From the NCBI GenBank assembly GCA_964545575.1, contig CAZJFL010000001.1:294178-358177 (forward strand): a DNA stretch of 64,000 bases, given 5' to 3'. The notes under the pieces are model-generated. The model was given only the letters and a program-made list of their open reading frames with translations, did no database searches and was not told where the DNA came from. Numbering within the stretch: the first letter of the stretch is position 1; each line of letters opens with the position of its first letter. Below, piece by piece: positions 1-45,451 of this stretch. Origin of the DNA: an uncultured Planctomycetales bacterium (lineage in GTDB: Bacteria; Omnitrophota; Gorgyraeia; Gygaellales; Profunditerraquicolaceae). A program made the position numbers and the translations under genes.

Positions 1-3000
1 ACCCCACGCCTAAGAAATCAAATAACCTCTTTAGCCGGTAATTCTGTTGCGTATCGCCGGGCATTACCTTGGTCAGGCGGATATTCCTCCAGTTGAATAA
101 GACGCTTAAGAGCGTGGCAACCGCTCCCATAATAATGAAAGCCCCGGCCAATTGCGGCACGCTGATTCCCAGGGCCTGAGTAATGAGCCGGTTAATATAC
201 TGTACCGCAGGAGAGAACTTGACGGCAAGAGACAACATCAATCCTCCTATGCTGCCCAGATAACTCAACATCAGCGGCAGCCAGCTGGCTACAAATCTTG
301 GCCAAACCGCCGCGGCCTTTTTGTTGCCCTTACCTTTTAACCAGCAGGATAAATCCGTGAGGCTCGTATTTTTGGAAAACGCAGGCGTAATGTAATATCC
401 TTGCGCAAAGAGGATTACTGCGCTCAATACTGCTATTAGCGCGTTGCTTAAAACCGGCAGATGCAGCCCGGAATGCGCCAAAATCCACAGCCCCCCGCCT
501 ACCGGCCCGACAAAGAATAAACCTATAATTATCCCGATTGCCAGAAGAGCGACGGCCGCTTTTCCCGCGGGCACTCTTGCTCTGGATACTTTTCCTTTGG
601 TTTCTTCTCTTTGCGGCAATTCTGTGCCGGTCATTGTGCTTATGGCGCTGATTACCGGCGCAGTGACTTTACTAAGATCCGCCACGGTGCTCTCCAAGGC
701 TAAGTCCATCCCTGCTAAATGGCTGGCCGTGGTCTCGTGCTTGAAAATCCCCTGCCAGCGAGAGGTATGCCGGGCATCATATTCTAATTCCCGCGCATAG
801 TCATGCAAATGGGTAAAGAAATTGCCGATCTGGGAATCGATTAATTGCAGGGCGGCGCAGCTCAATTCTTCTTTTTGTTTATCGGTAAGTTTATCTTTGA
901 CCTCTTGGGCGCGACCGCTAAAACATTCGTCTATCAAAACATCTATCCCCCCAAGGACAATATGCCGGCGCATCTTGATCAATCTGCCTAACCAGAATCT
1001 TCCTGTCTCTTCCTGAATCGGCCGCTGCAACCGGAAACTGCGCATATTTTCTTCTGTTATCTTTCTCTGCATAATCGCGATGATTCTTTCCGTAGTTTTT
1101 AAGTCGCTACTGCCGGAGCTTAAGATTTCCCTGGCCTCGTTGGTTAAAGAAGGATGATCGCGGAAGATGGTATCCTTAAAAGTATAAACGCCCCGCCAAT
1201 ACGCATCTTCATCGGGATTTCTTGCGCCTCTGGCTTTAAATTGCGCGCTCTCCAAAGAGCTGTCAGACAAATCGGCGTCAATGAGGTAAATTTCTTTTCT
1301 TTGAACTTTTTCATCAAGCTCAAGCAAAATATTCACTCCGCGGTTGCCTACCAGCGTCAAAATGGTAATTTTACCGCTCCTCCCTGCTGCCTCGATAATC
1401 TGCCTTATTTTTTTTGGATCATTGGAAATGCGCGCGTCAACTATACGCACATTATCTACGCCCAAAACTCCTGCCAAACAGTCTGCGTGGAGTGATGAAC
1501 CCGCCTTAATCACAAACGGCTGTTCCCCGGTTCTCTGGTCATAGAGCTCTCTGATGCGCTCTCCCTGCTGCTCCCAAAGCTTTTTCAGATTTTCCAGCTC
1601 TTCCAGCTCATCGCAGTCCGGCACAAACTCTATACCCAGGGTGTACGCCCGGCCTCTTGCCGAACGCTCCTTGTATCTTTTAATTTTAGCCTGGGGATAA
1701 ACCTCCCCTACTACCCCGTCTTCAAGCGTGCCGCTTAAACCGATAAAACCGGCGAAATGTTCGGATTGAAGATAGGTTAACAAAGGCATCTGGGATACCG
1801 GCCTGTCTTCGCCGCTAAAAGGCAGTTCTTCAGCAAACTCAACGAAGAATTGCAGGTCCTCCCACCGTTTTCCGTATTCAGATTCTCCGGAGAGCTTTCC
1901 GTGGATTACCACTTTATCGTCCTCAACTTCGTACTCAACGCCTCTTTCATAATGACGGAATACCTTTAAGGCAGTTTCTACCCAGTAGAGATATAACCAT
2001 TGCTCTGCCGCCGGAGCGGAGGTGCAGGCGGGTATTTGTGCGCGCACATAATCTTCTCCTGCCTTATTCAGAATAACTTCTTTGTTTTCATCTTTAAAAT
2101 ATGTCGCATTATCTTTGATAGCCATGGCTACCTCGGCAGCCTGCAGTTTTTTCTCGTCTAACTTTCCCTTCTCTTGTAACTGGGAAATGATATGCGGAGT
2201 AAATGCCTCTGCCACCAAGGTCCGGTCTGCCTCATCCGCCATAATTACCCATCTATGTTCGGATTGCGCCAGTTCCTTAGTATAGGACAGGAGGTCTAAT
2301 TTCTGATAATCAAAGTTAAAGGTGGAAATCTGGCCGTAAATTACGTCTGCTCTATGATAAATATCTTTACGCTCGGCCAACTCTTGCCATTTTCCGGCGT
2401 CATAGATGAAAGTCTGGCCATCTCTGGTGACATAGCCTACCCTTATGCCAAAGCGGCTCAATAACTCCGCTGCCCGCTTGCCTTGGTCATAAGCAAAATG
2501 GTCGTTACAGACCACGGCAAATACTTTCAGGTTCTGGCGTTTTACGACGAGATAAGCTAAACCGGGCAGGATAACCGTGCTCTTTGTTCCGGCAAAATCT
2601 TTGACCACGAAGAGTTGGGGTGAAACCAAATGCCTGGCGAAAGTTTCCAGGATAGCGGTTTTTGCGTCCGCGAATTTTTCCGCGCTAAATGGTATTCCCT
2701 CGGCGCTAACTTGTTCTCTAACAGTTTGCTCGAATGCCTTTGCATCCAATAACTTTTCTGCTTCGGGAGCTGCCCTCGTGGGCGCGGTCGCAAGTTGCGC
2801 CTTGGTCCTGAGGGCACGGATACCGGCGGCGATGTTTTTGCGCTGTGCGATGGCGATGGCGGCGATGGCGGCGATGCCCAATATAGGTAAGAGACTAACG
2901 GTGCCTACCGTTGTGCCGCCAGAGGCAAAAGCCAGGTCGACGGCCAAAGCCGCAATGAGCAATACCACAGCGCCTGCCCCGCGGCGGTGGTCAGTAGAAG

Positions 3001-6000
3001 GTTTTTGCTTTCCGTTTAATATTTCAAACTTTAATTTCTTAGCAGCATCTGACAGGCCTATCTCGAGTGCCTTCTGGGCATTAGTGCCTTTTACAAGAAT
3101 ACCAACGACTCCTTCTGCGCGGTATCCTGTGCGATCATCAAATATAGTTAAATATACCCCTTGGTTTTTACAAACACGGTTAAATATCTTCTGTAATAAC
3201 TTTACTTTTTTCTCTAACTTTTGCCCGCGTTCTCTAAATTTTATCTCTACATAAGCGCTATCCGGGGCTGCGTCTACCGCCGCGCTGTCGGCGCGGGTTC
3301 GCTGGCTGCGCTCTAAGGCCGCAGCCCTTTTTGCCTCAATGATTCTCCAAATCATAATTCCGGAGAGAATTAATGCAGCGATGCTCACTATAGGTAAGAG
3401 GCCGATGACAACCGTTGCGCCGGTGCTTGCCTGCGCCAGGCCAAAGGCGATAAGCAGGCCGGCAACCACTGCGCCTGCTCCGCGACGAGGAGTTAATTTA
3501 TTAATAAGGGCGCCGACGGGGGTCGTCCCGGAGGTATGGGCCGTCGGACAGCCCTCATTATTATTAATATATGCCCGGTCAGAATTATCGCTAGAGGCAT
3601 CTTGATACTCCTCAAGAGGTTCAATGATTATACTTACCTTCATCCCTTTTTCGCTGCCATACGCTACATCATCTTTTTCCACTTCCACCCGCGCTAGAGG
3701 ATATTGTTTCCTGAGTTCTCCTTCAAACTTTCCCATAAGGAACTTGTGGCAGGAATATTCTACCGTAATAATTATCTGGCCTTCACTGTAAGCGTAGTTT
3801 ATGGTGGTTATATCCGCCGCCTCTCTGTTGAATCCGGCCGGACCAATAATGAATTCGTCTATAAAAGAATCCCGGGCTTGATGAGAGAACCCGCATTGCG
3901 CCAGATGAAGAGGGATTCTCTTTAATGCTGGATAATAATCAGAGACATCCCCTAATGGCCGCGGGCCTTGATAGTGATCCGTATCTAAACCAATAAACCC
4001 TCTTCTATATTTATATTTATATTCTCCTTCTCCCCGGAATAATAATCCCTGCAAATTATTGACCTCATGCGGCTTGCCGCTGCCTTCGTGCAGGATAATC
4101 TCTACAAGATGATAACCGTGGTGGGACGGATTAATAAAGACGTATTTACCGCTCTGGTCTTTGCAGGCCACCAGCCTTCTTCCGCCGGTCTCTTCTTGGA
4201 ACATCTGGAATAACTTTCTTACTTGTTTATCCTTCACAATCACCTGATCTTCTATTTGCCGAGCAAGTTCAGTCAAGCCATGGCTTCGCGCAAACTTAGT
4301 CGCATAGGGCTTGTAGCGAAGATAAATCTGCTGCTCTCCCTTATTCTCGCTTAAATGCGGGAAGAGCTTATTAATCAAGTCATCTAATTTTTCTATCTCC
4401 TGCGCGGTAAGCCCGTCTCCGTCATCAGTCATGGCGCGGTCGTAATGTCTTGTAGCACCACCTATCATCTTGCGGTCAGTAACCATCTTACGCTGCTCTA
4501 TTAATCCCTTTAATCCATCTATAAATTTATCCGAGAAGCCCGTAGCGCTATCTTCAGCAAAATAATCAAGGATCGCCGCCTCTTCCAGCCCTACCCTCAC
4601 ACGGCCCTGTAACTCTTTATAAATCCTAATTATCTCCTCTTTAGACAGACGCCCTGCCTTAACTTTCTTTAAGAAATCTTTGATCTCTTTACTCCGGATG
4701 CAGAAATCTACTCCCACGAGGCTCCAATGGCAAACTTCATCGTATAAAGAAAAGCCCCTCACAACGGCTGTGATAATTTTCCTCATGACAAGAGGGATAT
4801 TTGCCTTAAAGAATTCAAGCTCTAACTCTCTTTTAATTCCTGCGTTATGTATTCTTCGGAAGATCCGCGTTTCCCTTGTCCGTTTTTGCTCATCTGCTCT
4901 GGCCAGTCCAGCTAATGCCCTCTTCTGCTTCCTTTGATATTCTCTCCGCTTGGCATCTTCTGCCGCCAGCGCAGCCGCGCCCACCACGCTTGCCGCCGCG
5001 TAGAGGCCGAGGCCGCCTAAACCTAATAAATTCTCCGGCGCCAGGAACCCTGCCTGCTTGGCCGCTGTGCCGCCGAGCATATAGTGGTCTAAGAAGTATG
5101 CCCCGCCGGCCAAAAGCGTCAGGCCGATACCGGCGATAGTTCTTCTGTTATTGCGTCCGGATTTTTTGGGTATATGCTGAAGCTGACGCGTCTTTCTGGG
5201 CTGTAATTTAACTTGTGGCCGCTCGACCACCCCAATTACTCTTCTAGGAGCTAATAGTTGCTGCACTTCTACCTTACCTTTAATATAGAAATATCCGGAG
5301 ATGCCGCAATCCACAAACCAGGCGTTGCGGACATTAAATTCCTTAATCATAAAATCCGCCATCTGCGTGGTGGTAGGGAAGCCGCCGAAAAGCTTACCGT
5401 AGGTGAGATTATCGGCATCAGTAGAGACTAAAACCAGGTTGCCGCGCTGATCCACGCCTACCAGGGATTTAGCACCTTCCCAATTTTTCTTAGCTACATT
5501 TTTACCGTCTTTTACTGCCTGCGCAAATACCCTTAAATTTACGGTATCTCCCTGCCGGGTGGTAAACTGCGCCGGGTAGCCGCATTGTTCGTTAATATCG
5601 CCACTAAAAGGAGCTTCGGACATCGCTACCACTACTGGCGCGCTATCGCCTAAGTTATAAGCATGTTGTAGGCCGGCAGCGGCAAAATTATATACCCCCG
5701 GTTTATATCGACTTAAATCGATAGTCGCGGTATGAAGCAACAGCTCGTTTAATGCGGGATAAACAGCATAATTTATCCCCTCACATATCTCTTGCTTCTT
5801 TATCGTGTCGTGCGGTAATTTAAATATCGCCCCGAGCAGCGCGGATATAAACGCTGCCGCCATGGCAAAATTGATGGCCGCGCGCAGGCTCATCCGCATG
5901 CTTGTGTATTTATAATGAGAAGTGCCTTTACCTTTAGTAGCCTCCGCTCTCCAAAAACCTATAAAGGCGAAGGCGTTAGCTACGATCCCTGCAACTAAGA

Positions 6001-9000
6001 TATATATTTTTGCGTTGGTGGTTAAGATATATGCTCCGGAACCACCCGCGATAAGGTACAGCAAAAACGCGCCGGCAAAATCGCCTGCTAGCGTGATAAT
6101 TGCGATGGTGCCGATAATACCTTGGAGTATACTGGTGGAAGAAGTGACCAGATGCTGCCTGATTAACCATCTGATTCCCAGGAATAAAAAGAGGGCTGAG
6201 ACAAGCAGCAGTCCTGTTATCAACAACGGCTTTATCAATACCATTGGCCCGCTTAATTCTCTAATCATCTGCGGCGGTGCGCTAGCGCGAACAAAAGCAA
6301 AGATAACTAATATTCCTAAGAATAATTTTGACAGGATTCTCGTGAATAATGTGACGGGTAAAATTACTTCTTGCGGATTCACTTCTTTATTATCAATTGG
6401 CGCCAGAGCCGGCGGAGCCCGGGGAGCCTGAGTAACCGCTATTATAGATAAAACCAGTGCCGTCAAAATCATGAATCCGCTGAAGGCTGTCTGCGGCGGG
6501 ATATGCAGCATGCGGGATGCCGCCGGCACGCCGAATAACCCGGCCGCACCGATGCCTAAAACAACTATTAATAATTCCATTAAGGCAAATCTCTTGTCGC
6601 CGGTATTAACTGGGACCGTAGCGGCCTGTTCTCCTTGAATATCTGCTAGCATCTTACGCCCATCCAAAACTTCTACGCCAAAATGCTGCTTTTCGCAAGT
6701 AATGATAACCTCGCAATGCGGTTCTTGTCCGAGCCTATGCAGTATTCTCACTAAATCTCTAAAGGTATCCGTATCGGTGTCGCACACCAATCCTAACTTC
6801 CGCTCTAACTCAATTCTCTGCTCCTCTGTCAGGTTATCGCTAAATTGTAATTCCAGCTCAAAATGCACCCGGGCGAGTATCTGTCTTTCCTGTAATAATC
6901 TCTTCATTTCAGGCAAGTCTAAATAAACCATGCTTCCCACCTGCTGTTTAGTCTGGGAGTCGATCATTACCGTCTTATTATTAAAAGGAACTAAGCCGCA
7001 TTCACCGCTATCGTGCCTTGCCGTAATATAACAACCATATTCAAGCACGCCCCTAAGGCCCTCTTCTTGCCACTGCGCTCTCTGTTTTGCGTCAATAAAA
7101 CCTTCATTTTCTAACAGGGTAGGTAAATCTATACATTTGCCTTTATCGTTCAAAAGGGTAATACGATGCACCCGGGATGCTCCCCATGCTGTATGTATAT
7201 GTCCTCTATAAATAATATTGAGATGCCTTACCGCAGCGCCTCCTATAATATCTACTATTTCTATGGCCTCTCTGCGTAAATCAATCGTCAATATTTTCTC
7301 CGGTTCTAATTCAGTACCTTCCTGCCTTACTAATTCGAAAGAGATGCTCTGGTTAAATTCGGCCCGCCCTTTTAAAGCCATCATAACGCTATTGAAAATT
7401 AAACTTGTATACCTTTCTGTATCAAATCCTCCTGCGATGGAAGCAGAATACCTGCGCCCTAAAACCCACATGGCGCTTCTAATATCTCCCTTAAGCTTCA
7501 TGTTCCGGGCGTATTTTATTCTGCTGGCAAGTTCATAGTCTACTGCAATATCGGTTCTTTCTGCCACCGCCACCGCGCCCAAGGCCACAGGCGCCAAGCC
7601 AAGCAGGAAAGCCCCATTATTGCCTGCAGGAGCTTTGCCTAATAAAGTAGCGACTAACAAGGCATCGCCGATAATCGCTGCCCAGAAAAGTATCGAGCCT
7701 ATCGGTGAATCCAGGAATGCCATTATTTTATTAAATAAAGCCTTGGCCGAGCCATCCAAGATGCCGTCCGTGCCGCAAAAACCTAAGCTTACCATCTTCT
7801 TCCGTACCGCCGCCGTCGCGCCAACGGCGCCAGTAAATTTTTCTTCCAGTGGCAACACAATATCAGCGGTATCGACTCTGGCGGCGGCCGTCTCTAGCAA
7901 GCCAGAGGTGGAAATGGTCACCGCTACATCCTTCCACCAAGAAGGCTCCGGCGATGGTTTCCAGTCCTCGTATAACGTAGTATTGCCAAAAAGCAACAGA
8001 TGCCTACCCGTCGGAGAAAATGCAAAGATCAGCGGAACTTCATTTTTTTCTTTCTTTACTACCACAAGATTGTTCAGACCCATAAAGATATTGTGCCCTT
8101 TGAGTTGCGCAGAAAGCAGAAATACCTCAAGGAATTCCTTAATTCCATTCCTGGATGAGCAAGGATCGATGCCTAGAACCATTGGGATAGAACTCTGCCA
8201 ATTGATCCGCGCCTCACCGTCTGCAGCCAAAACACGATGTACCTCTTCCAAGGCACGTAACTGGTCGATTAGATACTCAAATGTCCGTACCGACATAGCA
8301 AAATGGAACTTACCAGTCCAATCATCAGGCATATCTTCCGCTAAAGACTTTTTCAAAGTAATGACGCCTTCCTCTTTAAAGGCCTCCCATAATCCTGCAC
8401 CTAATTCATCTACTCCTATATTTTCATCAAAATCGAGGCTTATTCCATAAAATTGGTATTTTTGTTTCAGCAACTGCGCTAACCTGCGGGTCTTTTGGGA
8501 ATCCTGAAGAACCTCTTTAAATATATCTGGTCTACTTCTATTTTTCAGGTCTTTGGTCAGCTCGGGCCATTCTCCTTTTGCAAGTAAATTCTGCGCAATA
8601 TACGCAGCAAGGTAAAAAAGCGCATATCCTTTGCCTGCCCCTATATCCAAAATCCGCATTGGCTCCTCTTCCCGCAACGCTCCGGCTGTAATCAAATCCT
8701 TTCTCCTCTTCATCAAAAGCGTATCACAATAAAGCCTGTATCCTTCTTTATCAATACCAAGTATGTAAGAATCATAATATTCATTATTAACACTTGCCTG
8801 AGATCTAAAGGGAAGCCTCGCCCCTCCCCCCAGTACCGTTCTAATATCCCTAACATCTCCTTGGTATGCAGCGACGTAATTATCCGCTGCAAAGCTCTGC
8901 AAAGCCCCCCTCGTTGAATCTCGGTCGGTATTCTTTTGACCACTATACCATCTCGCCACTACTCTATTTAGATTGCCCGCGGCCCTAAAAGGAATAACGG

Positions 9001-12000
9001 TTCTTTGCGACCCGCTAAAGGTTCTTATAGGAAACGGGTAAAAACGATCCCTGTATGCCTTTTCTAGTGTCCCTAAATCTCTCACTCCGTAGAAATCTAC
9101 GACTCTAGATCTTAATCTTCTCTTTGCTCTTTCATCGCCTGCAATTTTACCGAGTATATCTCTTGCTTCTTGGACTAATTTTGTTTCATCTCCGGCTAAC
9201 CTGGTCATTGCTTCGGCAATAGCTGCGAAGATGTCATATACATCTAAACCTAAAGGTCGATACTTATCAAAACGATCTATCTCAAAATGCTCGAGATAAA
9301 TTCTATGAACGTTGGCGTCTATTATAGACGGGGTTTCTGGCCATTTCATATTGCGTATCCGGTTAAATCTATCGATCTCTGCGCTAAGAGACGCTGGCAG
9401 TTGAGTGGCCTTTCCTTCGGCAAACTCTAATAGGCCTTCTGCTTCTTTTATTTTTATTTCTATCTCTTCTCCTTCGGCTTCTTCTTTTTTTGACATACCG
9501 AAAGCACCGGTAGGAATAAGGATGTTGCCATCATGGATAGCTGTCTTGAGTAACTCCATTGCCGTATATTTATCGGATTCTTTTTCGTAGTCAATGGGCC
9601 CTTTCCTCAATTTGTACACTTCGTACACTGCCAGTAATTTCGTTGCTTGTATTATCATTTGATACATGCCCGCTTTTGTAATAATAGTCCCGACAATTAA
9701 ACCCAGAGACGCCAGGCTAAGCGGGGAATTATGCGTGGCTGCGGGAGCTTTACCTAATAAAGTAGCGACTAACAAGGCACCGCCGATAATCGCTGCCCAG
9801 ATGATTGCAGCTCCGGGTAAAGTGTCCCAGAAAGATACGCGGGAAGAACGAGCGGCCCTATTTCCTCCGCTAGATAGAGCCGTTCGTCCCGTTGATCTTG
9901 TAGACTGGAATGCTACCGCGAACAGCAGCAAGACGAGCAAGAATTGTATCGCGGTGTGGGCCAGTGAGCTGTTCCCAGGAATCAGCCCGGCCGTTACGTG
10001 TGTAAACATTACCGGTAGCGTTGTTGATAAGAAATATCCTGAGATGGCCGTTACCGTTCTCGCGTGCAGCAGCAAAGATGGTAGAATCTTGACTAAACTC
10101 GACAATGTGGTCAAACTCCAGTGCATCAAACTTGACAGGGCACATGGTACACCTCCTTCTCTAATTAGTTGCCCTGCAGCCCCTACGTGGGTCGCCTCGG
10201 AGGTGAGGTACGCAAAGACTGCAGGAACAACTAAAATAGCCGCAAACACTACACCTGCCACGGTAAGTAGGAATTGCGGCTGGGTTAATAAAGCCTTGAA
10301 TGTCTTAACTATATTAGTAACGACTGCGCCAAAGTTCGGCGCGCGGGCAGCTCCCACTAAAGCGTGAATCTTTGCCCTTAATAATTGGGAACGGACGAGG
10401 AATGTAGCGGTAACGCCGATGGCTAAAGCGGCTAAACCAACAACTACCGGCAAACCGATTCCTGTGCCAAACAGCCACCCAGCTAAACCCAAGGCAACCG
10501 GCGTGCAATTGGCAGCCGGCACAGCAGGAGCGGTAGGCGCCTTTTCTCTTAACTCTGTAATCTGTAAGAATATTAATACTGCTTCTTTTCTGGTGAGGAT
10601 CAAATTATGACGGGGTTCTTTGCCCGGAGAAACAACAGTGATTGCGTATTTATCGTAATTTATTCCTGTTTCTTTTTGTCTACCTATCTCTTCCTGTGTC
10701 AAAACCTCTTTCCATTCTGACCATGTTCTTCTTTCTCCCGGCTGGGAAACTGAATCTTCCGGCTGCGGAATCATAGCCGGCTGAACTTTCTTTGTAGGAT
10801 TAGCTACCTTGGATTTAATGTTTACATACACCTGTCCAAGATGATTATCTCTGCTGAATCTAACGATTGCGTACAATGCGATAGCAACAGCTATGCCAAG
10901 AACCAGGTATAGCAATAATCTGACATCTGCAACGGAATTCTCAATAACGTCGCTCTTTGCCGCGATGCTGAATAATGATAGTGCTGCTACGGGAAGGATT
11001 CTAACAAAACGTCCGGCAGTCGGCGGGCTGCGGCCTTCGTAAGATACGTGCTCATCATTCTTCTGTGCTTTAGCCCTCAACATCTTTATGCCATAATAAG
11101 CCAAATTGAATAAAACAATTGCTATTACCGCGATAAGCGCTGCTTTATTGCTGGCGAACCCGAAACCAACTGCGCAACCTGACAAAGCCACCGGCATCGC
11201 AACCGGCTCAACCGCGCCGGTCTGAAGCGGAACTTTAGATTCTTCCAGTTTGCCGCTGGGGCTGATAGAGTAAACTTCTTGGATGTTCTTTGAGTCCTTT
11301 GAAATGTTTACTTTTACGATTCTGCCGGAAACCTCAAAATTAACCCTCTGGCCTTTATCAATAACTTTTACTCCGTCTTTGCCGAACACCTTTCTGAATT
11401 CCGGATTTAAAGCATCCTCGTATGCGTGACCGGATGCAGAAATCAAATTAATAACCTTTGCCTCTTCCGGCTTCATGCCCTGCCCTCTTAATATCTGCGC
11501 CAGATTACTGAAATATACACGGTCGTTTCTACGCGTAGGCCAATATGCTGTGCCGCGATGCTCTATCTGCCAAGGGCAAAGATGAATCACAGCGGCTTTA
11601 TCTTCAAACACAATCACCGCCCCTACGCATTGATATTCAAGCAGCGCGCTCGTCTTAACCACGCGCCCATCTGAAAGTGAGAATATTTTTACGAGATTTT
11701 CTGTTACGATGGTATCTTTTGCTATTAGACTGTCTGGATTATTTATATTATATGTAACTGGCAGCGTAATTGAATCAGCCTGCGGCAGGGCGCCGACATT
11801 CAACTCTGCTCCATAAGCGGGATTACCCAATGGACTACGGGCAACATCGCGCACAAAATTCAGCAGCGGGTTACCCTGCGGCCTGACCGCGCCGGTCTTT
11901 TTCGGCGCAGGAGCCTCTGTTCCATTATCGAAGACATGTTGCATAAAGAATTCCCTGCGGTCTTCGGAAGAACCCTCGTTGCTTATGTTGTAACCGGCAG

Positions 12001-15000
12001 GCCCGATCACGCCATCATCCAACCAAATCATATGCGCCACATCACCCATTAATACTATATGCATATAATCGGTAGCAAACCATTCTTCAATATATCCCGG
12101 GCCAAAACGCGAAAATCCTTGAGAACCTACTATCTTTATCCATTCCTGCTCTGCCGGCGTCCCCTTGACTAATTTCTTATAAACTTCTCTGCCAAAAACC
12201 ATCACCAATCTCTGTCCATCAGTGTAGGGTTCGCTTTGCAGATACTTAACTACTTTTAGCTTTAGCGGCTCTCCCGGCTTAGAACCTAAAATATCAGGAA
12301 TAGTATCGGTTACTTTACGTATGCCATTATGCGCTTCGATGCGGCAGCTATCCACTAAAGCGACGTGCTGCGGAACCGCGCTTCTTAATTTCTCCGCTAC
12401 TTCATCCAGAGTCAACTTCCGCATCTTTTCTTCCCGAACAGCATAATTATCAACGCTAAGTTGCGCTCCCGTTAATTCCGCTACCTTCTGGTTGAGTTCT
12501 CTTCTGGCGCTATCGCTTAAAACCGACGGCCGCATATCAAGAATCTCCTGTCCGAATGCGACCAGCTTTTCTCTTTTAACGCCATTGCCTATTTGAGCCG
12601 TTAAATTCGGGAAGTCATATTTAACTACAGCCTCAGCTGCTGCAGCGCCTCTTGCCCGGATAATATCCAATACGAAATCATACTCGACGCCAAAGGCATT
12701 ATTCATTCTGATAATCTGAGAGAAAGGAATCCGGCTGATTTCTTGATCGCTAAAGGTCTCAAGAACCAATTTCTTGGCCTGATCGAATCTGGATACAATA
12801 ATATGATTAATCTGTGGGTCTACTGAAATGCTGGTGATAGTGTGGGTCAGCTGGGCCAGATAAGCATTCGCCTCTATTTTTTTGGCTTCTTTAATTGTCT
12901 GCTGGCTGGCGCCGGATGCCTCTAATTTCTTGAGGAAGGCTGTGAACTCTGCGGGAGACATGCGCCCGACTTCATCTAAGTTAACTCTTAACTGCATGCT
13001 AGTCGTGGCAGCGCCTATTCCGGCATCGCTGTATTTATCATCCGGCAGGGCGCCGATGGCAGCCTGGGCCACGGCAAATGACATCAGGTTCGGATAGCCG
13101 CCGACTCCGGGTTCAACCATGCTGGTCTGAGGCGGGGCTTGCGGATGGCGCTGGCTCGCTAGCCGCTCTTGACGCATATGCTCCGCCTGCCCAAGCGTAG
13201 GCAGCACTGCCATTGCGCCGATAAAGAAAATGGCACCGGTAAGAATAACTGCCCTGCCGATTCTATTCTTACCTAATTTGGCGCCGGCATAACCTATGCC
13301 CAGCGTTAAAACGGCTAAAGCTAAATCGGCGGTTTTCGTATCGCTGTCGGCAATGCGCCTCTCCTGATTTGCCTCTAGTTTTCTGGCGGCATCATCAGCC
13401 TTAGTCGGATAAAAATGAATAAACCACTTTGTGACTTTGTCTTTCAATTCCCCAAGGCCCGCTGCGATAGCAACAGTCTCTTTATTTCCTTTAGTCAGAG
13501 TTAATGCCCGGTCTATTCTTTCCATGGCCTGAGTAAAATGCTCCGGGTTCCGGGCTAATCTGGCGCGGACTACCATTCTAATCGCGGCTTGTAATCTCGC
13601 GGCATTAATGCTCTCAACCTTAATGTAAATTTTACCGTTTTCAGTAACGGTGATTCGGCCTTTTCCATTTTTAACTACTATCTCTATCGGCCCGGCAATC
13701 AGATTCAACGGCAGGACGTGCCCTTCAAGAAGCAGGCCGTACTGACGGATAAATTTTGCGGCAGCCTCTTCAATCTTGCTGCTCTCTTCGGGAGTAAGCT
13801 CAACATAAGACTTTATTCTAAAATACTCTCTGGTAGTCTTAGTCGCCACCACTGCGCCCATTGCATCCGCCGCGCGGACAAAGCCCGCTCCCCAGTCGAT
13901 TTGCATAGGATTGGAGACGTTGCTTGAATCATCGGCGACTCTTTGGCCCTTGTTTCTTCCGGCGTTTTCGATGGTGAGTTTGAGCTGCCTGCGGCTGAGC
14001 TTATCTAACTCTGCGCGGATATGCTTTCTGGCATAGGTAAAGGTGGAAGGCGACACATCTAATTTAACCCGCGGAAACGCAGCAGCGCTCATTTGAGCAA
14101 TGTCCACCGCGTCACTAATTCCTATTACTGGACTTGGCCTGTATGGCCCGTATTGTCTTCTTCTCTCTATTAATCTTCGCGCCTGGGCATTTTTAAGCGC
14201 ATTTAATCTTGCTCTGTCACCAAAAGCAATGCTTACCCGACTGGCCAATACGCGGAGAACATTTTCCCGCATAGAAGGCTTACGGGTATTTAACCGGTGC
14301 GCGCCGGTGCTACGGTAAAGTTTTTCGATTTCTATATTATTATCATGTCCGCTCTTGCCGGAGAATGCGGGATGGAGGGTGCTAGCTAGTAACTCGTGCA
14401 ATATCCTGCAGACAACTTCTTCTTCGAGGTTTTTCTTTATAAGGTCGAAAGGTAGGTATACAACGACTGTTTCCTTGCCATTCAGCGGATCTGTGCAGGT
14501 TTCCCACCAAGCCCTGCCCTTTAAGCCAAATCTTAATTCGATGCGAACCCCTCTACCTCTGACTGCCCAGCCTAATCCTATAATCTTAAGGAACTCTCTA
14601 GCCTTGATAATCAGATGGCCATAACGGGGATTATCCGCGTCTATGGTGCCAGCATAAGCTGAATTGGCTATATCACTATCTCTGTCTTTCTTGGTACCAA
14701 AATCTGCGCCGAAATCAGGCGTAACGATAGGCGGACTACGTACACTCTGGGAACCGGTGGGGAATTGTGATGGTCTTGTAGTAGAGCCAGTAGGATCTCT
14801 ACGTGATAAAGACGACTCTGGTATCTTTACCTTTCTGGCACCTACACCCCGAGAACCTCTGCTTCTTCCATCCTTTGTAGTAGTAGCTGCTTGGGCAGCC
14901 GTAGCTTTTTCCATGCCTTTGCCGCCGGCTACTGCACCGAATGAGCGTCTAACCAATCTACCTAATTCAACTAGTTTAACTAATTTAACTAATTCAACTA

Positions 15001-18000
15001 AACCTTTGCGCGTTTGTCTGTAACCACGACCTGCGATTGCGCCAATCGCAGCCGCGCGCCACACGCCCGGGCTAAGCGTTCTTCTAGCCATTCCTAATTC
15101 TTTAATAAATTGCGCTGTCCCTATATAATCAACCGACTTCATTCCCCAGTTAAACGCGGGCTTCAAGCCAGCCGGCAAAGTACCCAACGCCCTGCTGATT
15201 CCCACGTTGCCTACTACCGAGCCAAACTCAGCCGCCGGCAAGCCTTCAGTGATGCCTTTCGGCGCAGCCTGCGCCGCCTGCTGTTGCTGCCGTCTATTAT
15301 TAAGCCATCCTTTTACCGCAGCCGCTGCTGTATCCCATAATTTCTGTAGTTCGTTTTTTGGTGCCCCTACCAATGCTTCCACCGGGTCAAACGAGCGCAG
15401 CGTAGAAGTGGAAGAGGTACCGGGATCCTCTAATCCCTCTAAGTCCAAATCGGATAAATCGCCGAAATCGCCTGAATCAACGCCGGCAAAATTACGCCCT
15501 GCCTGCGGCTGAGGTTGCGGCGCCGGCTGGCTGGCCTTATTAAGGTAAGGAGCGAGCAAGGCTAATCCTCCGGCAAGAATAAAGGTAGCGGTTAGTTCAG
15601 GAGGCAAATGCGGGATAGTGTGCGTAGCTTTAGCTACTGCCTGCATGCCGGTATTACCTAAGCCTGCGGCAAATAACCAATAGGGCACGCCCTTGATATC
15701 TTTAAATATCGTGCCGCCATCTAAGGGTTTAAGCGGAAGTAGGTTAAATACGGCCATGCCTAAGTTAACCGTAGTAAATAAATTCAGGGCGGTCTGTAGA
15801 TTCAAGCTGCCTTGCGCATTTACCCCGATATGCCCGCCCAAAGCCAAACCCGCGGCCATCAAGCCTAAGCTCACTAACGGGCCGGCCGCATAGACCAGCC
15901 TCTGCTTCCAATTACCGCGGGAATTTAAGCTATCCAGATCCTGTATGTTTGCTTTCCCTCCCAGCACACCCAGCTCTACCCCAGAAGTCTTGCGGCCAAA
16001 AATTCTGGCTACCAGGCCATGCCCGGCTAATTCGTGGCCTAAAACCGAAGCACCGATAATACCCGCGGATGCTAATCCGCCAATGAGACTGGTAGAAAGA
16101 TTATGATGGCCTAAGAATAAGCCAGCGGCAGCTAATACCGGTATAGCCAACGAAGTCCATTTAATAGTAAGATGATTGATCAAAGGCAAAGGTATGCTGA
16201 TTCCGGATTTATTGATGAATTTCGGCCGCGGCGCGGGTGCCTGGGCAGCTGCTTCCGGCTTAGCCGGATGGCCTTCCTGCCACTTTTTATCCCACTCTGC
16301 CTGCATGGACGCAAAGGCATCCACTGTGCCGGCTGCAGGCGTAAACTCTGCCTCGGCATCAAAAACTAACGGCTCTTCTGCCGTCGCCGCTGCCGGCTTC
16401 GGCGACAAGCGCTTGACTGTCGGTTTGCCGCTTAAAATTATCTCTCCTGTTTCTGCCTTGCTTGAAAATTCATCCCGCTTCACCTCGCAATATTTGCCGT
16501 TATCCATCACCCCGACATACTCTACCAGCGTGCCATCCGGAGCGACCTTAAGGATGCCTGTCTTGACCACTGCTACCGAGTGCGCCGTGCCATCGTGGCG
16601 GATAAAGGCAACAAAAGGAGCGGCTTCCTCCATTCTCTGCTTATCTACTTCATTTGCCTGCCTTACCTCCTGATTACGGGCGGATAAGGTCTCCTGATAG
16701 TCAGCCAATTCTTTCGCTAAATCCTTTAATTGCTTCTGGTCGTAGGCAATCACTCTATTCTTGAGCGAAGGAATCAGTTTCGCCAAAAGGTTATCCCGCC
16801 GGGTTGCCAATTGCCGGTTGTAACTGATATCACTTTCTAGGGCTTCTTTATACTGCTCCAGTTGCGTGAGTAAAACGCGCACCTCATCTTCCTGGAGACT
16901 CAAGAGGACCGAAATTAAAATACCGTCTAACCCTTTATAATAATTCAGCCACCTTCTATTCTGGGAGCGCACGCGCGGTATATCATTATCCAGCTGCCGG
17001 CTCAAATATCCCTGCAACACCCTGATTAAATACCCTAAATAAACATCGTCGACTTCTGCGGGAGGAATTGCCGTTTTGAATGCCCGCGGCATACCCTTGA
17101 AACGCGCAAGCACTTTCTGGGCGCTCTCTGTCTTTGGTGTGCCCGCAAGCTCGGCTAACTCTTGAATAGCCTCAATCGTGGCAGTTAATTCTTTTTCCCT
17201 TGCCTCTGCGTCGCTGGCAACGATAGCATCCTTTAAGCTAGCCGGCGGTTCTTTAACCGCAGCAGGCGCCGACTTCTTTAATGCCGCCAGGTTAGCCGCA
17301 TTTAAGCGCACTCCGTGCCGGCGGGCGATTTTTACGATATCGGAGACATACAACCCGATCTGATTGTCACGGCCCGCATTAATAACTATCCTTTTTCTGC
17401 CGTTATTGCTGTCACTGACCAAAATATCCAGAATATCGCGGGTAATCTCCTGAACAGCATCCGGACCCAATTTTCCCCTTTCCCGCAATAAAATTCCCAA
17501 GATCTGCGTGGCGCAGATGCTTAAGGCCCTGCCGCCGCCGTTAGAGAGGGTATTAAATAACTGCTCTAATTTATCAGGGGCCATCTTCAATAATTCACCT
17601 TGCCAGCGGCTTAAGCCGTTGCGACCAAGATAATCTTTTCTTCTCTGGATTACCTGCTTCCTTGCCTCAATCTTTTCCCTCTGTTTTCTTTCTTTGATAT
17701 TCTTTATCAGTACCTTCGCCCACTCAAACAGCCCCTTCTTAAACGAAGGTCTCTCCACGGCAGGGGCGCTGCGGTCGCCTTCCTTAACCACCTCATGATA
17801 TCGCCTCAGGTCTTCTGCTACCCTTTGCGCTTCCCGCTGTGAGGCATCAAACGTCTGGATGGTTATCTTATTCACCATCAGTTTATTCTGCTTCAAGGAG
17901 ATAAGCCGCTCTCCCAGTTCTTTTGTTGTAAGCTTCTCGTCAAAGACAATCTGTAACAACCCCAGCATATCTTTTTCCTCAACCCGGCCTTCTTCCTGCG

Positions 18001-21000
18001 CGGCCTTCAGCAAGTTGGCCTTTTCCTGAATATCCTTTAAGATGCCCTCTCCGGCAATCATCCTTTCTCTCTGCCATAATACTGACAACTTTTCTTGTGT
18101 TAAATCTTTCAAGAACTGCGTATATTCTTCTCGGGTAGTAATCTTTGCTAGTTTATCTGCGTATTTTACTATTCCTTCATATCTGCTACCTGCCAATAAA
18201 GCTTTTCTCTGGGCTTCTGCGGCGCCGGCTATCTGTTTCTGTGTCCCCTGGAATTCTTTTAAAGCCGCCGCTAGCGATAAAACCGCTTCTCTACCGATAC
18301 CGGCAAGCGTATGCATCAACGCGCCTATGCCAAAAACACCGCTTCTACGGAGAAACTCCCTATTATTTACCGCGCTGCGGCCATTCTTGATATACTCGGC
18401 GTACTTTTCAAGGGTATCGATAAGTTTAGAAATATCTTTTGGCCCTAAGACCACGCTGGATAAATCCCTAAAAAATACCGCGTTATAATAAGTTAACCTT
18501 TTGGGAAAAGTTAACCTTTTGGAAAGCGCCTGTCTTAAAGCACCCTGCTCTCTTTCTCTCTGCTTTCGCGTTATACCCTTATCAAACATAGCCAAATAAT
18601 TATGGAATGATTCCGTTATCTCCAGTAACTCTTTATCCTCTATGCCCTCTCTAGCGGATTTTAATGACTTATTTAATAGGTCTTGAACTAAGTCCCGGTA
18701 TTTATTTTTATTTTTGGATTCCTGCGAATAGTTATTATGAGAGACTAACCCGAAGGCCTGTAAAACATAAGTTATTATTTGAATTCTTCTGGCAACCATT
18801 TCCGCATCGCTCATCTGGGGTAAAACCGTCCCCGCCTTTTCTCTTTCTACGCTAGCAGCAATTTCTTTCGGCTTCTCTTTACCAAAAACAGTAATGGGTT
18901 TTGTCAAGTAAGGAATTTCTTCAAAGTCAATGGATGCAAACCCGTCATAGGTCTCGCCAAAGCCCAAACTGATTTTCTCTATGCCGTTCTCTTTGGTAAT
19001 GCTGAGGCGCGGCACTAAACCGCCCGCCACGTGGACCTGCGGATGACCGATAGAAAACAAGCGGCTGCCGCTGGCAGTATAAAGCGTGCTGTAGCCGGTC
19101 TGGCGCGTGCCGCCCTGCTGGGCGCTTACCAAGATAAACTGACCGCCTTTTACCTGAGAGACAATATATTCCTTGCCGTCTTTGGTCTTGAGCCTGAAAA
19201 GACGAGAAGTAGAGTTTTCTCCTTCCAGCGCCAAAATCTTCTGATTAGCTTCCTTTAACTCGCCTTCTATCCTGCTGATTTTTTCTTCCACCGGCCTGAT
19301 TAACGCCTGCGCACTCGGCGCATCTGCTAAGACAACATTCTCATCGTCAAGAATATCCTGCTTCTCTCTGCGGGCTGCTTCCAGCTTTACGAGCAAAGCT
19401 TCCTTCTGCTTTCGGGCTTGGGCTAAAAGAATTTCTGACTGGTAAGGTTGTATCCTTACGCTTGCTTCCTCAACCGCCTGAAGTTCTTCTTTCGCCAAAA
19501 TCTTCTGATTAATTTCTTTTAACGCGTTTTCTATCCTGCGGATTTTTTCTTCCACCGGCCTGATTAACGCCTGCGCACTCCTCGTATCTGCTAAAACAGT
19601 ATCTTCATTGTCAAGAATATCCTGTTTTTCTCTGCGGGCTACTTCCAGCTCTGCGAGCAAAGCTTCCTTCTGCTGCCGAGCCTGGGCTAAAAGAATTTCT
19701 TGCCCCTGTAATTGCGCTAACAAGTTTATCTTTCTGCGCTGTAAATCGGCAAAGTGTTCCGGCGCGATTACCTCAGCATCCTGAACATTCTCCGCACCGC
19801 CCAATAAACTAATCGCCGCCTTAAGGGTGTCTTTTTCGGCAAACCAGGCAGGCGCGCTCTTTGTGCCTTGCAATTGGGCCAAGGTTACCACCTGCGCTGC
19901 AGCATCGGGATATTGGAAAGTAAAATGCCTTCCTTGTGGGTCATAGGTAATGTTTAATGTAGTCTTGCCTGCCTTAAATTGCACCGGGGCGGATACCCAG
20001 CGCTTACCGGCGGTATCATAAAGTAACAGTTTCCCGCCGGAAACACACATCTCTACCTTCCGACCATTGGCTAAGCGCAAAACAAAAGGATTATCGCTGG
20101 AATAGCCATTTGCCTTTAGCTGCTGCTCTGCTAACTGCCGCTCCAATCTCTTTTGTTCTGCTTCTAAGGGAGCGCTCTCGGATTTGGCAGCCGCCTCTGC
20201 TGTGATGAGTTCCGCAGACTTGGCCATTAGCGTATCTACCGCCGGCAAAATTTCGGCTACGCTATGGCCATCCACCTTTCCTGCCAGCTGCGGCAGGCCG
20301 CCTAATCTCTTTAGCTGTTCTTGCAGCGCAGAAGCGGCAAAGGCGACAGCCGGCAAAAGACGTTCAGTAGCGTCCTCGGACCTTCTATTTATCACGACGG
20401 TCCTGCTCTCGACATCATTAATCTGGCCAGTTTGTTCTTCAGTCTCTATGTATCTGCGTGCTGCCCTGCGCGAAGTGCCGCGGTTGGCTGCGAGAATCAG
20501 TCCATCGATAGCTATGCTGACTTCGCTGAATGCCTGGCCGGCTTCTTTCTTCCCCAGCACTACCGGCAGGAAAACCTTGTTCCCATTTCCAGCTTCACAA
20601 TAGAGCGGGACGTTCAAACCCGCTTCTAATTCTAATTGATAAGGATTATTCTTGGAAAAATCGCGGCTTAGCGTCGCTGCATCAACCCAGAAAGCCTTGC
20701 CTTTATAAACAAAGCTCAGCTGTTTACCGGCGTATAATGTACCGGCGGTTAACTCCAATTCCACCCGCTCTACCACCGGCACCGTAACCTTAGCCCGCGC
20801 ATCTTTCTCTGCCGGCTGCGCGGCCTTTTTGGGCGTAGAAAAGACATCCTTCCAATTTTGCGCCAAAGGATCCAAAGAATCTCCTGCCACCGGCATAGAG
20901 ATCGTCAGTTGATTCTCAATCGAATGATAATATAAAGGAATCCTCGCCCCGCCTAACTCGATATAAGCCGGCGCCTTGGCCTTGCCATTTAAGTCGCTTG

Positions 21001-24000
21001 CCTTATTCGTTACTCTGGCGCCGTTGCCCTCAAAAATAAAGACACCTTGTTCATAGTCATAGCTTACGGTAACCTCAACCTTCTTGGCTGCCAGGGTGGT
21101 TACTTTCTGTCGAACATCCGGCTCGCCAAAATCCGGCACGCTGATATAGCCCCACGCCTGCCAATCCGCAGTTAAAGCAGCGGCGGCCTTGCCAATTGCT
21201 GCTCTTGCCTTCTCCAGCTCAGCGAGTAAATTGGCTAATTTCTCGCGCGCCTGCTTCACTTCAGCTTCTAAGCGCGTTTTTTCGGCGCCAGCCTCCCCCT
21301 CCCCGGCCTGCTTTTGTAATTCGGCGATTCTGGTTTGCAGGCGCTGGGTTTCCCATGCCTGCGCCACATTCATATCCTTACTTAATTGCACCAGCAGCGG
21401 CTGTGCGCTTAATTTATTCAGCGCTTCCAAGGGGTCATTGTCAAATCTAAGAGCCTCATCACTGATTAATTTTACCGCTTCAATAATCCCTCTTTGCTGG
21501 TTAGTTAAATACCCCCTGTCGACCAGGGAATCGATATTTTCATCGCTGGGATCGGATAAGCGCGCATTGATCGCCTGGGTTCTTAAGGTCATCCTTTGCC
21601 GGAAGGCTAAAGCTTTCTTATCATCTATCTGGGGAGTTAAAGCCGCGATGTCGGATAAATCGCCCATCACTGCCTGCTGGAACTGAGCTTTCTTCTGCTC
21701 CAGCGGAGAAACTGTTGCGCTGGTTTGCTCTGGGTGGGTGACCGGGGCCGGAGTCACCGGAGCTTCTACTTTCAGCTTTAGGGTTCCGTTATCCGCCAAT
21801 TCTAATCCGGCTTCCTTGCGCCGGGTCTCTACCAAATCCCGGACATATTTCTGTATTTTAGTGTCGGGAGTGGTAGCCAGTGCAAATAAATCATCATTAG
21901 CTAGATTAGTTAAGGAAATTGCTTTTTCTAATCCTGTGCCAGCTCGACGCACCTGCTGGTAACGTTCCCATAAATCAAATCTAGCCCCGCTACCTATACC
22001 TAAAAAGACCTTTTGCATTAATTCGCGGTTCTTGATATCCGGGGCCTTCTCCAAATAATCTTTGACTTGCTCGATCTCCTCGCCGGTTAAATCAAAGGTG
22101 CCTTTGTGCAAAGAGGCGATAATATCGCCTTCATTCTTTCCTTTCATCCTGGCAATCTCACCGGCGATTAAACGCATCTGCTTGTTAAGTTGCCTGTCAC
22201 TATAACCAAGGTCGCGGTTTGCATAACCGGCGAACCATTGCAATACTCCATAAACTACTTTCTTACCCAGGTTCCAATTTTCTCTGTTTTCGTTTGTAGC
22301 CATAAAAGTCAGGGACGTCTTTAACATATCTCCCCTGGCTACCTTTAAAAGCTGATCCTCGGTTACCTGCCGAGCGAGAGGCTTGCCGCTTGTAGCCGCT
22401 AAATCATTACGCACCTCAGCTGCTTTAACCAAAAGCTCTCTTGCCCGGACTAACTCTCTATCGGTCAAACTAAATCCCTGGTGCAGCTTAATCGCAAAAT
22501 TAATATCATCTATGCCGTAAGCTTTTGCCGAACCCTCTAAGGTCTTACCTGGTTTGCCGATATCTTTGGATAATTTGTATATCCGCTCGCTAAACTGCGC
22601 TGCCTGCCGCGGATGGAATACCCGGTTCAAGAAACTTCGGCTTTGCTTAATTACCTGATAAGGATTATCTGAAACCAAAAGATTCTGCAGCGTGGATAAC
22701 TTGACTTTATTTATAGCGGAATCCAACACGGGTGCCGTGTTTCTTGTCGTCACTGGCATGCCGAATATTCTTTTTACGCCACTGACTATGTTGCCAATAT
22801 TAAGCGACCCGGCCTCATCACTGAGCACATTAAGCGGATTGGATGTTTTTGTATAGATCTGCTGAATATATCCCAGATTTTTCTGCAGACCTGCCGCGCC
22901 TAATGCCGGAACTAATAAAGTAGCGAATTCCGCCGCGACTGCATTGTCATTTGATAAATTCAGCTCTTTCTTTATCTGTCCCCAGCTAATATTAGAATAT
23001 TGCTTGAGTGTCCTGGCTGAGCGGATAAGAGGCAGGCCATGCTTAATCTCAGAACCGGCTAATCTGCCAAAAGAAATAACCGATGAGATTGCATCGCTAG
23101 CAGACTTTCCTACTTTACCCTCGGATCGTAAACTAACCAACCATTTGCCAAATCTGTTCTCGCTAAAGAATCTCTGGGCGGTGGCCTGATAACGGTCCAT
23201 AGCGGCGGCACGCAGGTCTCGCGCTGCCTTTGCTTTATCCAGTAAGCCGCTGACTCGGCCGCTGCCAAAAGAAACCTTGAAATTATCGCGGGCATATCTG
23301 GCCAATGCCGTGCGGTCATTACCCTCTGGCCCGCCTTGGATTAAACCTACCATCTGAGATAGGCTGGGCAGTTCTCTACTATCAGAATTATGCTTTTCTA
23401 AAATCCCGTAAGTCTCAATGGCTGCCCGGGCAGTATGCAGGGAATAATCCGGATTTACTGCCGCATAAAGCACAGCTTCTATATCCGGATTGATTGCCTG
23501 ATACGGCGCAGCAACTTCATTTAACGCCTTGTGGGTAAGCTGGGTTCCGGAAGTAGCGGCAGCCTGGACTTTCTCTCCTAAATCTAACATCGCCGCATAT
23601 GAAGCCAGCTGCTTCTTTTCTTCGCCTTTAAGTTGGGTGAAATTATTTATATTGGGTTTAGTTAAGGGCGTTGTGGGGGTAGTGGTAGTTGTGGTAGATT
23701 GGGCCTGGTGGTAACGCTGGTATTCTGACATGGCGGCAGCCAGATGTACACCGACCGACTGGCTCAAATTCGGCCCGTTCGGCATATAAGAAGAAACAAA
23801 ATCAAACCAGACCTTATTCGGGGTCTCGGAATTCTGCGCCTCTGCTACCTTAGCCATGATTGCATCTCTACTTGGTAATTCGGCAACGCCCGCCTTTAGC
23901 ATCGCCTCCTGCACCCTGGCTACTTGTGCGCTAACCTTAGAATCCAAGTTAATATTTGTAGAAGGCATGATATTGCTGCCTAAGGCGCGCGCGGAAGCCA

Positions 24001-40861: not shown

Positions 40862-41353
40862 TTATCTGTTTAAGTGCCCTATTTTGCCAATCTGTTTAAT
40901 CTCAATAACCGTACTCTTCATCGACTTATTTGCAGAAGTACGTTGTAAAGCGCTATTCGCGCGGTTTGAAGTAACTTTAGAAAACGCCCTTTCTCTATGC
41001 TTGCTCATACCCAGGTTAGTCTTTAAGGGGGCCTTTACTTCTTTTAAAAACGATCTTTGATTTATCTTTTTGATTGTAGGAACGCCGATTTTTTTATTCA
41101 ATTTTGGTATTTTGGCCCCAGCCGGAGGCTTAGCAGGCCTAATAATATTATACGGCCTCTCAAGTGGGTTAAAATCGCCGGGCCTTCTACTTGGCCTTTG
41201 GTGATCGCGCCATTGGTAACCGGCGCCTCCTATGCCTTTGACAATTGTAAATGCCGCCTTACCATTATTATTATTCATTCTAGCTCTTTCTGTCGGCCCC
41301 ATTATTCCAAAAACTCCAATCGCTGCTATCGCTATTATTACAAATATGCCCAT
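40862..41353 (-). CDS. Hypothetical basic protein with an N-terminal TM helix (163 aa). Its stop is 3 nt from the giant-gene ATG.
   Basis: It is an ORF-track ORF with the N-terminus MGIFVIIAIAAIGVFGIMG. It lies in an operon between the 393-aa gene and the giant gene and overlaps the upstream gene by 16 nt. Confidence 0.55.
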   Translation of the reverse strand: MGIFVIIAIAAIGVFGIMGPTERARMNNNNGKAAFTIVKGIGGAGYQWRDHQRPSRRPGDFNPLERPYNIIRPAKPPAGAKIPKLNKKIGVPTIKKINQRSFLKEVKAPLKTNLGMSKHRERAFSKVTSNRANSALQRTSANKSMKSTVIEIKQIGKIGHLNR

Positions 41354-42453: not shown

Positions 42454-42496
42454 CTTCGAGTTTTGCAAAGTCTTTTGAAAACTTCTTTTTAATCCC

Positions 42497-45424: not shown

Positions 45425-45451
45425 TGCCGGATAATTCTCCTAATTTTTCTG

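Follow-up and report, generated by a model that had tools for sequence, protein, structure and literature searches.

Giant proteins of Omnitrophota commonly contain SecA_DEAD and SecA_PP_bind domains, and the types that carry such SecA-like domains include those designated 'Archaeovorin-type' and 'Dockerin-type' (West-Roberts et al. 2023, bioRxiv 10.1101/2023.11.21.568195). According to this preprint, the SecA-like domains lack the scaffold and wing of SecA, are placed after transmembrane anchors near the C-terminus, and form a long-branched clade distinct from the regular SecA that these genomes encode along with SecYEG. It was suggested that they export accessory proteins or the giant protein itself, and genes resembling those of the type II secretion system (T2SS) were often found near the giant genes. 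A PF07517 architecture cluster of 20 proteins has also been described among 916 long proteins (Nielsen & Lui 2026, bioRxiv 10.64898/2026.06.07.730766). Here, we report the analysis of a SecA-like module of 755 amino acids (aa) embedded in a giant open reading frame (ORF) of an uncultured Planctomycetales bacterium that belongs to Omnitrophota in the GTDB lineage. The stretch of DNA analyzed, hereafter the window, comprises 64,000 nucleotides (nt; assembly GCA_964545575.1, contig CAZJFL010000001.1, positions 294,178 to 358,177). The module is a further example of the kind already described in 2023; an initial annotation of this DNA had considered such a domain fusion unusual, a view that the earlier report of the same fusion in giant Omnitrophota proteins does not sustain.

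We interpret the module as a SecA-derived ATPase belonging to a clade known from giant proteins that Omnitrophota and related bacteria embed in their membranes; it would function as a membrane-tethered polypeptide motor. To this reading, we assign a probability of roughly 0.6. The stop-free run that contains the module spans 13,620 codons (2-40861, (-) strand), and the four SecA motif blocks that the initial annotation had recognized are all present in this one frame, collinear and on the (-) strand. The extent then proposed, 1300-2640 (residues ~12,740-13,187), lies inside the module and is too small, given that the module covers 581-2845; motif VI, the scaffold helix and the C-terminal hairpin all fall outside it (Table 1). 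The giant ORF extends past the window start; residue numbers begin with codon 1 of the stop-free run, the Met being codon 2. The start codon is located 3 nt past the stop of a 163-aa ORF upstream. A reading on the plus strand over 1-3000 was ruled out, all three frames being full of stops.

That the module is a SecA-type domain, as initially proposed, is borne out by database models and by profile comparisons. The Pfam matches to SecA_DEAD (55.9 bits, E 5.1e-15, cut-off 24.6) and SecA_PP_bind (31.5 bits, cut-off 23.5) both exceed their cut-offs. All eight NCBIfam matches are to SecA or SecA2 models, at 45-91 bits vs cut-offs of 725-1493: the secA equivalog models TIGR00963 and PRK12904 yield 91 bits vs 800 and 89 bits vs 814, respectively, and the SecA2 models yield 45-64 bits, far under their cut-offs of 725-1100. 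Judging by these scores, the module is a SecA homologue and an orthologue of neither SecA nor SecA2. Among 25 phmmer matches to PDB sequences, 24 were SecA or SecA2 (best E 1.1e-13), and identity to canonical SecA is 19-25%. A nine-sequence profile, made from the module plus relatives located in long proteins, was compared with a 13-sequence profile of canonical SecA; hhalign returned a probability of 100% and an E value of 1.6e-67 over 554 columns that run from before Walker A through the preprotein cross-linking domain (PPXD) and the second nucleotide-binding domain (NBD2) into the long scaffold helix. The same profile matched Thermotoga maritima SecA (3din) with an E value of 1.3e-88, in an alignment that reaches residue 680 of that protein. 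The similarity is well above chance level and is not limited to generic P-loop residues, an outcome that would have spoken against the initial proposal; it extends over PPXD, NBD2 and the scaffold helix.

The predicted fold points in the same direction. The AlphaFold2 model of the module, built from the nine-sequence alignment, has a mean predicted local distance difference test (pLDDT) score of 76.6 and a predicted template modeling (TM) score of 0.76. In a Foldseek search against the PDB, the 35 best matches were all SecA or SecA2 (E 2e-26 to 5.3e-10); the top TM-scores, 0.65-0.69, were obtained with SecY-bound SecA (3dl8, 3din, 6itc and 5eul), and the SecA2 structures 4uaq and 6sxh were matched as well. 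XPD, DinG and RapA appeared only from E 1e-7 or worse, with TM-scores of about 0.3. A generic superfamily 2 (SF2) or DEAD-box nucleic-acid helicase, a chance similarity of the P-loop, or a housekeeping secA joined to the frame by an assembly error would be alternatives, favored by the DEAD tetrapeptide and by a weak Pfam DEAD-family match (24.6 bits, under the cut-off) in one relative, P0010. The module is nevertheless of the SecA type specifically, and not a generic DEAD helicase: it carries the preprotein cross-linking insertion, and the Foldseek E values of other SF2 helicases are worse by 16 or more orders of magnitude. The score against the secA equivalog, a small fraction of the 800-bit cut-off, does not fit a housekeeping gene, and the same in-frame architecture, with conserved flanking transmembrane segments, recurs in independent metagenome-assembled genomes (MAGs). 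Given the PPXD, the fold, the score and this recurrence, we reject helicase, chance similarity and assembly chimera alike as vanishingly improbable.

Of the parts of SecA, the module has the first nucleotide-binding domain (NBD1), PPXD, the long scaffold helix and, judging by the profile alignments, NBD2; it has no wing domain, no C-terminal linker or tail and no Zn finger. With hhalign, the scaffold helix was matched, as far as template column 671, with 'AQKKVEG-NFD-RK--VEYDDVMN-QR' of canonical SecA. NBD2 of the closest relative, P0004, scores 43.9 bits against Pfam P-loop_SecA. No match to the wing family SecA_SW (PF07516) was found, and only ~22 residues of short helices separate the scaffold helix from the next long helix; likewise, Pfam yielded no match to the C-terminal linker or SEC-C Zn motif (PF02810), and transmembrane helices directly follow the module. 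The two long C-terminal helices may be the counterpart of the two-helix finger of SecA known as intramolecular regulator of ATP hydrolysis 1 (IRA1), the register of which was agreed by two methods, neither of them significant (hhalign E 0.12; hmmsearch domain 3, i-Evalue 0.86).

The best relatives of the module are found in other long proteins. An exhaustive HMMER scan of 1.84 billion representatives produced 1,360 matches at E up to 0.001, the closest being P0004, a 3077-aa fragment with 39% identity (E 2.7e-96). The next-best matches, P0009 (5423 aa), P0016 (6368 aa), P0011, P0012 and P0010, also come from long proteins or fragments. The best relatives are labeled as Candidatus Omnitrophota or Omnitrophica MAG proteins, and P0008 as Deltaproteobacteria. 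Four further loci, at 36-44% identity, came from a genome scan that used a three-sequence alignment; two of them are labeled Omnitrophota and two Planctomycetales/Planctomycetia, the best is 44% identical, and this very protein was not among the relatives retrieved. Exact peptides of the module had no match in the GTDB representative genomes or the JGI contigs scanned. In a neighbor-joining tree, a quick distance tree computed without support values, the window module and P0004 fall among 12 modules of long proteins or fragments (981-6,470 aa) that form one clade, outside of which 41 canonical or short SecA-like sequences are placed. Bit scores agree with the tree: 417 for P0004, 73-126 for the other long proteins, and 50-70 for canonical SecA. 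Word-indexed homologue searches, whether started from the module or from the alignment of its clade, retrieved canonical SecA only and no long-protein relatives.

Some of the relatives have peculiarities of their own. P0005, a 617-aa metagenomic fragment, contains an NBD2 insertion of ~80 residues (residues ~130-215, …VGDYVVTGEERSISKVIEIK…VRFENGVTLRVPDGHRFFTTEGEE…) that neither the window nor any other relative has and the sequence of which is reminiscent of a possible Hint/intein-like element. At locus L017, the giant frame stops ~580 aa past the module, and another open frame, of 2,750+ codons, starts 18 nt upstream of the stop codon (6080-6098); the overlap reflects either two adjacent large genes or a frameshift. 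Many stand-alone SecA-like proteins of ~600 aa (e.g. P0013, P0014, P0020, P0026 and P0029; 570-660 aa) match the module as well as full-length SecA does; these have the canonical GEGKT Walker A and are too short for a full wing/scaffold region.

The module is embedded in a giant membrane protein, as the initial annotation had it, lying in frame between transmembrane helices. Hydropathy indicates a signal-anchor helix at the N-terminus of the giant protein (residues 53-71), ~30 more hydrophobic helices, and, from residue ~9,900 onward to 12672, dense transmembrane clusters ahead of the module. The pair of transmembrane helices immediately before the module is followed by a K/R-rich stretch, QRKNIAAGIRALRTK; K/R-rich stretches are located on the module side of the flanking helices, which, by the positive-inside rule, is consistent with a cytoplasmic position of the module. 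At least three helices follow (residues 13436-13454, 13468-13486 and 13571-13589). A cluster of hydrophobic helices, with about seven to eleven hydropathy peaks, some overlapping, occurs right after the module in all seven relatives with enough downstream sequence. The C-terminal 220 residues of the window protein are 33.5% identical to the post-module stretch of P0004 (E 9e-21) and are also homologous to P0005 and P0016, and the homology chains on through P0009, P0010, P0011, P0012 and P0008. The transmembrane segments on the flanks are conserved between the window and its relatives.

Combining these features, we propose the following mode of action. The retained NBD1, PPXD, NBD2 and scaffold helix would provide the nucleotide-binding and polypeptide-clamping parts of the motor. 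Unlike a soluble SecA that docks on SecYEG, the module would be held at the cytoplasmic face of the membrane, with a transmembrane hairpin preceding it and a conserved domain of ~8-9 predicted membrane helices (the count is uncertain) following it. There, it might dock on SecYEG or work together with the membrane domain behind it. The motor would translocate or otherwise handle polypeptides, by ATP-driven movement, in the service of the giant protein or of co-expressed substrates, for export or membrane integration. The module is translated last, after >12,600 residues, which makes action in trans more plausible, and it would thus probably act on other copies or substrates rather than on its own N-terminal part.

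Several observations weigh against the interpretation as an active motor for polypeptides at the membrane. Located at residue ~12,700, the module cannot assist if the regions ahead of it are exported co-translationally. The Pfam match to P-loop_SecA, which represents NBD2, remains under its cut-off (18.6 bits vs 27), and no significant counterpart of the two-helix finger that SecA inserts into SecY is detectable in the module. The most conspicuous deviation concerns Walker A, where canonical SecA has GxxxxGK[ST] (MxTGEGKT) and the module reads A-G-T-K-S-T, with Thr for the Gly before Lys. The initial annotation, which noted GTKST in place of GKT, was correct on this point, and the Gly so replaced is otherwise invariant; its question whether the Walker catalytic residues are intact is answered in the affirmative for the Walker B D-E and the Walker A Lys and in the negative for the Walker A Gly. 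Of 84 relatives aligned over this site, the 82 that are not truncated there have GK[ST] without exception, and the four closest loci have AGGKST, ASGKST, SAGKST and AFGKT, with no indel. Among the sequences aligned, the loss of the Gly is specific to this lineage. The Thr codon, ACA, is two base changes away from Gly, so that the substitution is not a single-base error.

Other conserved positions have changed as well. Where the four nearest relatives all have RDA, behind the NDY block, the module has DQG (R120D, D121Q, A122G), and motif V reads GNRGVNI vs canonical AGRGTDI, with the Arg kept and the Asp changed to Asn. Given the changes in Walker A, RDA and motif V, ATP binding or hydrolysis may be impaired in this copy, and its motor activity must be regarded as uncertain. 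These same changes, with the Walker A Thr unique compared with the 82 relatives and the four closest loci, would be expected if the module were a pseudo-ATPase, in which the SecA fold is kept as a polypeptide clamp, scaffold or regulatory element of the giant protein's membrane base and this copy no longer turns over ATP. The confidence of the AlphaFold2 model dips at the P-loop (block 81-90, pLDDT 69, between blocks of ~90), and the motif V Arg is lost in several clade members (P0007, P0008, P0012 and P0016), which fits that explanation, too.

The remaining catalytic apparatus speaks for an active ATPase. The D-E-A-D of Walker B and the following TPHIIS are intact, and D204, E205 and P217 are invariant in the nine-sequence clade alignment. 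Motif VI reads QFKARGARN vs canonical QLRGRxGRQG, with two Arg kept; across the clade, the Walker B D-E and the motif VI Q and two Arg are conserved, as is GK[ST] in every relative. The module itself keeps the Lys and Ser/Thr of Walker A along with the motif V Arg. When each locus was left out in turn, the deviation at positions invariant in the four nearest relatives was 24.7% for the window, similar to the level of L017 (23.8%) and L016 (20.4%), both of which have GK[ST]; the frame being intact as well, general decay of the module was ruled out. On balance, we consider loss of ATP turnover in this copy, the main competing explanation, rather unlikely.

The membrane domain downstream of the module raises a different alternative, in which the SecA-like motor and this polytopic domain, as the channel, would together form an export device independent of SecYEG. 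Their linkage in every clade member with enough sequence, the homology of the membrane domain among these members, and the loss of two parts of canonical SecA, the wing domain and the C-tail, are what such a device would predict. Nevertheless, no Pfam family was matched by this domain in a scan of all eight members, and no similarity to SecY, YidC or TatC was found. The AlphaFold2 model of the domain (P0004 residues 1151-1620, eight-sequence alignment) was unusable, with pLDDT 44.3, and a coupling of the domain to the motor is suggested by association in sequence only. The resemblance of the motor model to SecY-bound SecA is equally compatible with docking on SecYEG, which genomes of this kind encode (10.1101/2023.11.21.568195). 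A SecYEG-independent device appears improbable to us, and a membrane-tethered SecA-derived motor remains our preferred interpretation.

Table 1. Features of the window discussed in the text, with positions in the window and residues of the giant protein or of the structure model where applicable.
Feature	Position	Strand	Remarks
SecA-like module, complete	581..2845	(-)	755 aa, residues 12673-13427; Pfam, NCBIfam, profile and fold matches
Walker A, deviant, FAGTKSTV	2573-2596	(-)	Lys and Ser/Thr kept; preceding Gly is Thr
NDY block VVCNDHFAYDQG	2480-2515	(-)	counterpart of SecA 'VTVNDYLARRDA'
YGQISTFNFDYQ block	2303-2338	(-)	counterpart of SecA 'YGTNNEFGFDYLRD'
Walker B and next motif, MADEADRTLVAEAFTPHIIS	2183-2242	(-)	aligned to SecA equivalent; D-E pair intact
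PPXD inserted in NBD1	1856..2143	(-)	SecA_PP_bind match; aligns to canonical PPXD (phmmer, hhalign)
GFIGLSGTLE	1721-1750	(-)	just upstream of NBD2
NBD2	1106..1615	(-)	aligned by hhalign and PDB profile; P-loop_SecA under cut-off
Motif V ILTLVGNRGVNILL	1322-1363	(-)	Arg kept, Asp replaced by Asn
Motif VI AQFKARGARNPDED	1205-1246	(-)	two of three Arg kept
Scaffold helix, 51 residues	950..1102	(-)	AlphaFold2 model residues 582-632; first helix of SecA helical scaffold domain
Two long C-terminal helices	629..883	(-)	AlphaFold2 model residues 655-693, 700-739
Two transmembrane helices before module	2846..2980	(-)	residues 12628-12646, 12654-12672; Kyte-Doolittle 19-residue means 2.28, 2.39
Start of conserved polytopic membrane domain	2..556	(-)	helices 500-556, 404-460, 95-151; runs past window
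Giant ORF	2..40858	(-)	>13,600 codons; ATG at 40858; C-terminus past window start
NAGPA phosphodiester glycosidase	5258-5521	(-)	residues 11781-11868; 25.6 bits
Methyltransf_23, weak	8213-8695	(-)	residues ~10723-10883; 21.8 bits, under cut-off
Peptidase_M50 (site-2 protease) motif	15695-15838	(-)	residues 8342-8389; 40.6 bits; beside hydrophobic helix
PG_binding_1	35852-36007	(-)	residues 1619-1670; Pfam 58.9 bits
c-di-GMP-I-GGC riboswitch aptamer	42540-42625	(-)	Rfam RF03167, 65.9 bits, gathering score 59
Promoter-like site TTGACA-17-TATACT	42651-42679	(-)	just upstream of RF03167 aptamer
Two T2SSF (TadB/C-like) genes	43692-45424	(-)	Pfam; upstream of giant gene
TadG-like gene, 835 aa	46089-48596	(-)	upstream of giant gene, same strand

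The giant protein contains several other recognizable domains ahead of the SecA-like module (Table 1). PG_binding_1, the weak Methyltransf_23 match and NAGPA fit the cell-wall-directed enzymes reported for giant Omnitrophota proteins (West-Roberts et al. 2023, bioRxiv 10.1101/2023.11.21.568195). The Peptidase_M50 motif could provide for intramembrane cleavage of the giant polypeptide.

Upstream of the giant gene, the riboswitch aptamer of family RF03167 is followed, in this order, by an ORF at 41338-42519, an ORF at 40862-41353 and the giant gene. With the riboswitch heading it, the giant-gene operon may be controlled by cyclic di-GMP (c-di-GMP) or by a variant ligand. In its most far-reaching form, the scenario of a dedicated translocon would place a SecYEG-independent apparatus in the giant protein, with an operon switched by c-di-GMP and a motor with the non-canonical P-loop AGTKST, a combination to which we give little credence.

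Further upstream, the (-) strand carries a Tad/Flp-pilus-like gene set (43692-52767) that comprises the two T2SSF genes, the TadG-like gene, an ORF of 480 aa and several small ORFs in a row without a Pfam match; one member of this cluster bears the name 'tight adherence protein B'. Two overlapping ORFs of 100 aa and 97 aa (43009-43601, (-)), situated between this gene set and the riboswitch, are probably a toxin-antitoxin pair, and the 100-aa product has a precomputed match to ParE_toxin. An AAA_14/DUF4143 ATPase gene (56420-57559, (+)) is located between the two divergent large-gene regions, and identical copies of its product occur on contigs of several ENA, JGI and Logan samples. A second c-di-GMP-I riboswitch (57777-57869, (+); RF01051, 70 bits) precedes another long frame (58153-63999, (+)), which has an N-terminal two-partner secretion (TPS) domain, spans 1,949+ codons, continues past the window end and is called at 3,226 aa on an ENA contig. 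No rRNA or tRNA was found in the window.

As for how bacteria export proteins of 10,000-100,000 residues or insert them into the membrane, the SecA-like module is the sole recognizable export-related element built into such proteins. The present example leaves the picture drawn in the 2023 preprint unchanged. With well-defined boundaries and a structure model good enough for use, the 755-aa module can serve as a construct; the tightly linked membrane domain behind it is a candidate partner. In addition, the natural pair of Walker A variants, GGKST in L014 and GTKST in the window, is suited to testing the need for ATP turnover.

Compared with canonical SecA (3din, 3dl8, 1m6n and 2fsf), the module shares, in collinear arrangement, NBD1 with the Walker B DExD, PPXD and the scaffold helix, along with a probable NBD2 in which the motif V Arg and two motif VI Arg are kept. 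Unlike canonical SecA, it lacks GxxxxGK[ST], the wing, the C-terminal linker and the Zn finger, and whereas canonical SecA is a soluble protein of ~800-900 aa, the module is embedded between membrane segments of a >13,600-aa protein. It resembles the accessory SecA2 proteins of the mycobacterial, clostridial and Listeria types in being a second, diverged SecA paralogue with presumably dedicated substrates. Some SecA2 proteins, such as that of Mycobacterium tuberculosis (PDB 4uaq), also have a reduced wing domain. Unlike the module, SecA2 proteins are soluble and stand-alone and have a canonical Walker A; the giant gene, in turn, lacks the accessory SecY2/Asp context of those systems.

The closest correspondence is with the SecA-like domains of giant Omnitrophota proteins (West-Roberts et al. 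2023, bioRxiv 10.1101/2023.11.21.568195). As in those proteins, SecA_DEAD and SecA_PP_bind overlap with no match to SecA_SW, and the module is located after transmembrane anchors, toward the C-terminus of a transmembrane-rich giant protein. It is, like them, highly divergent and groups apart from canonical SecA; T2SS/Tad-like genes are found near the giant gene, and the nearest relatives are Omnitrophota MAG proteins. The preprint makes no mention of Walker motifs, riboswitches or c-di-GMP and describes the domains as devoid of the scaffold, the first helix of which, by contrast, is retained in the window module. What this locus adds to the earlier description are the exact module boundaries, the retained scaffold helix, the conserved membrane domain downstream, the lineage-specific change in Walker A, and the c-di-GMP riboswitch at the head of the operon.

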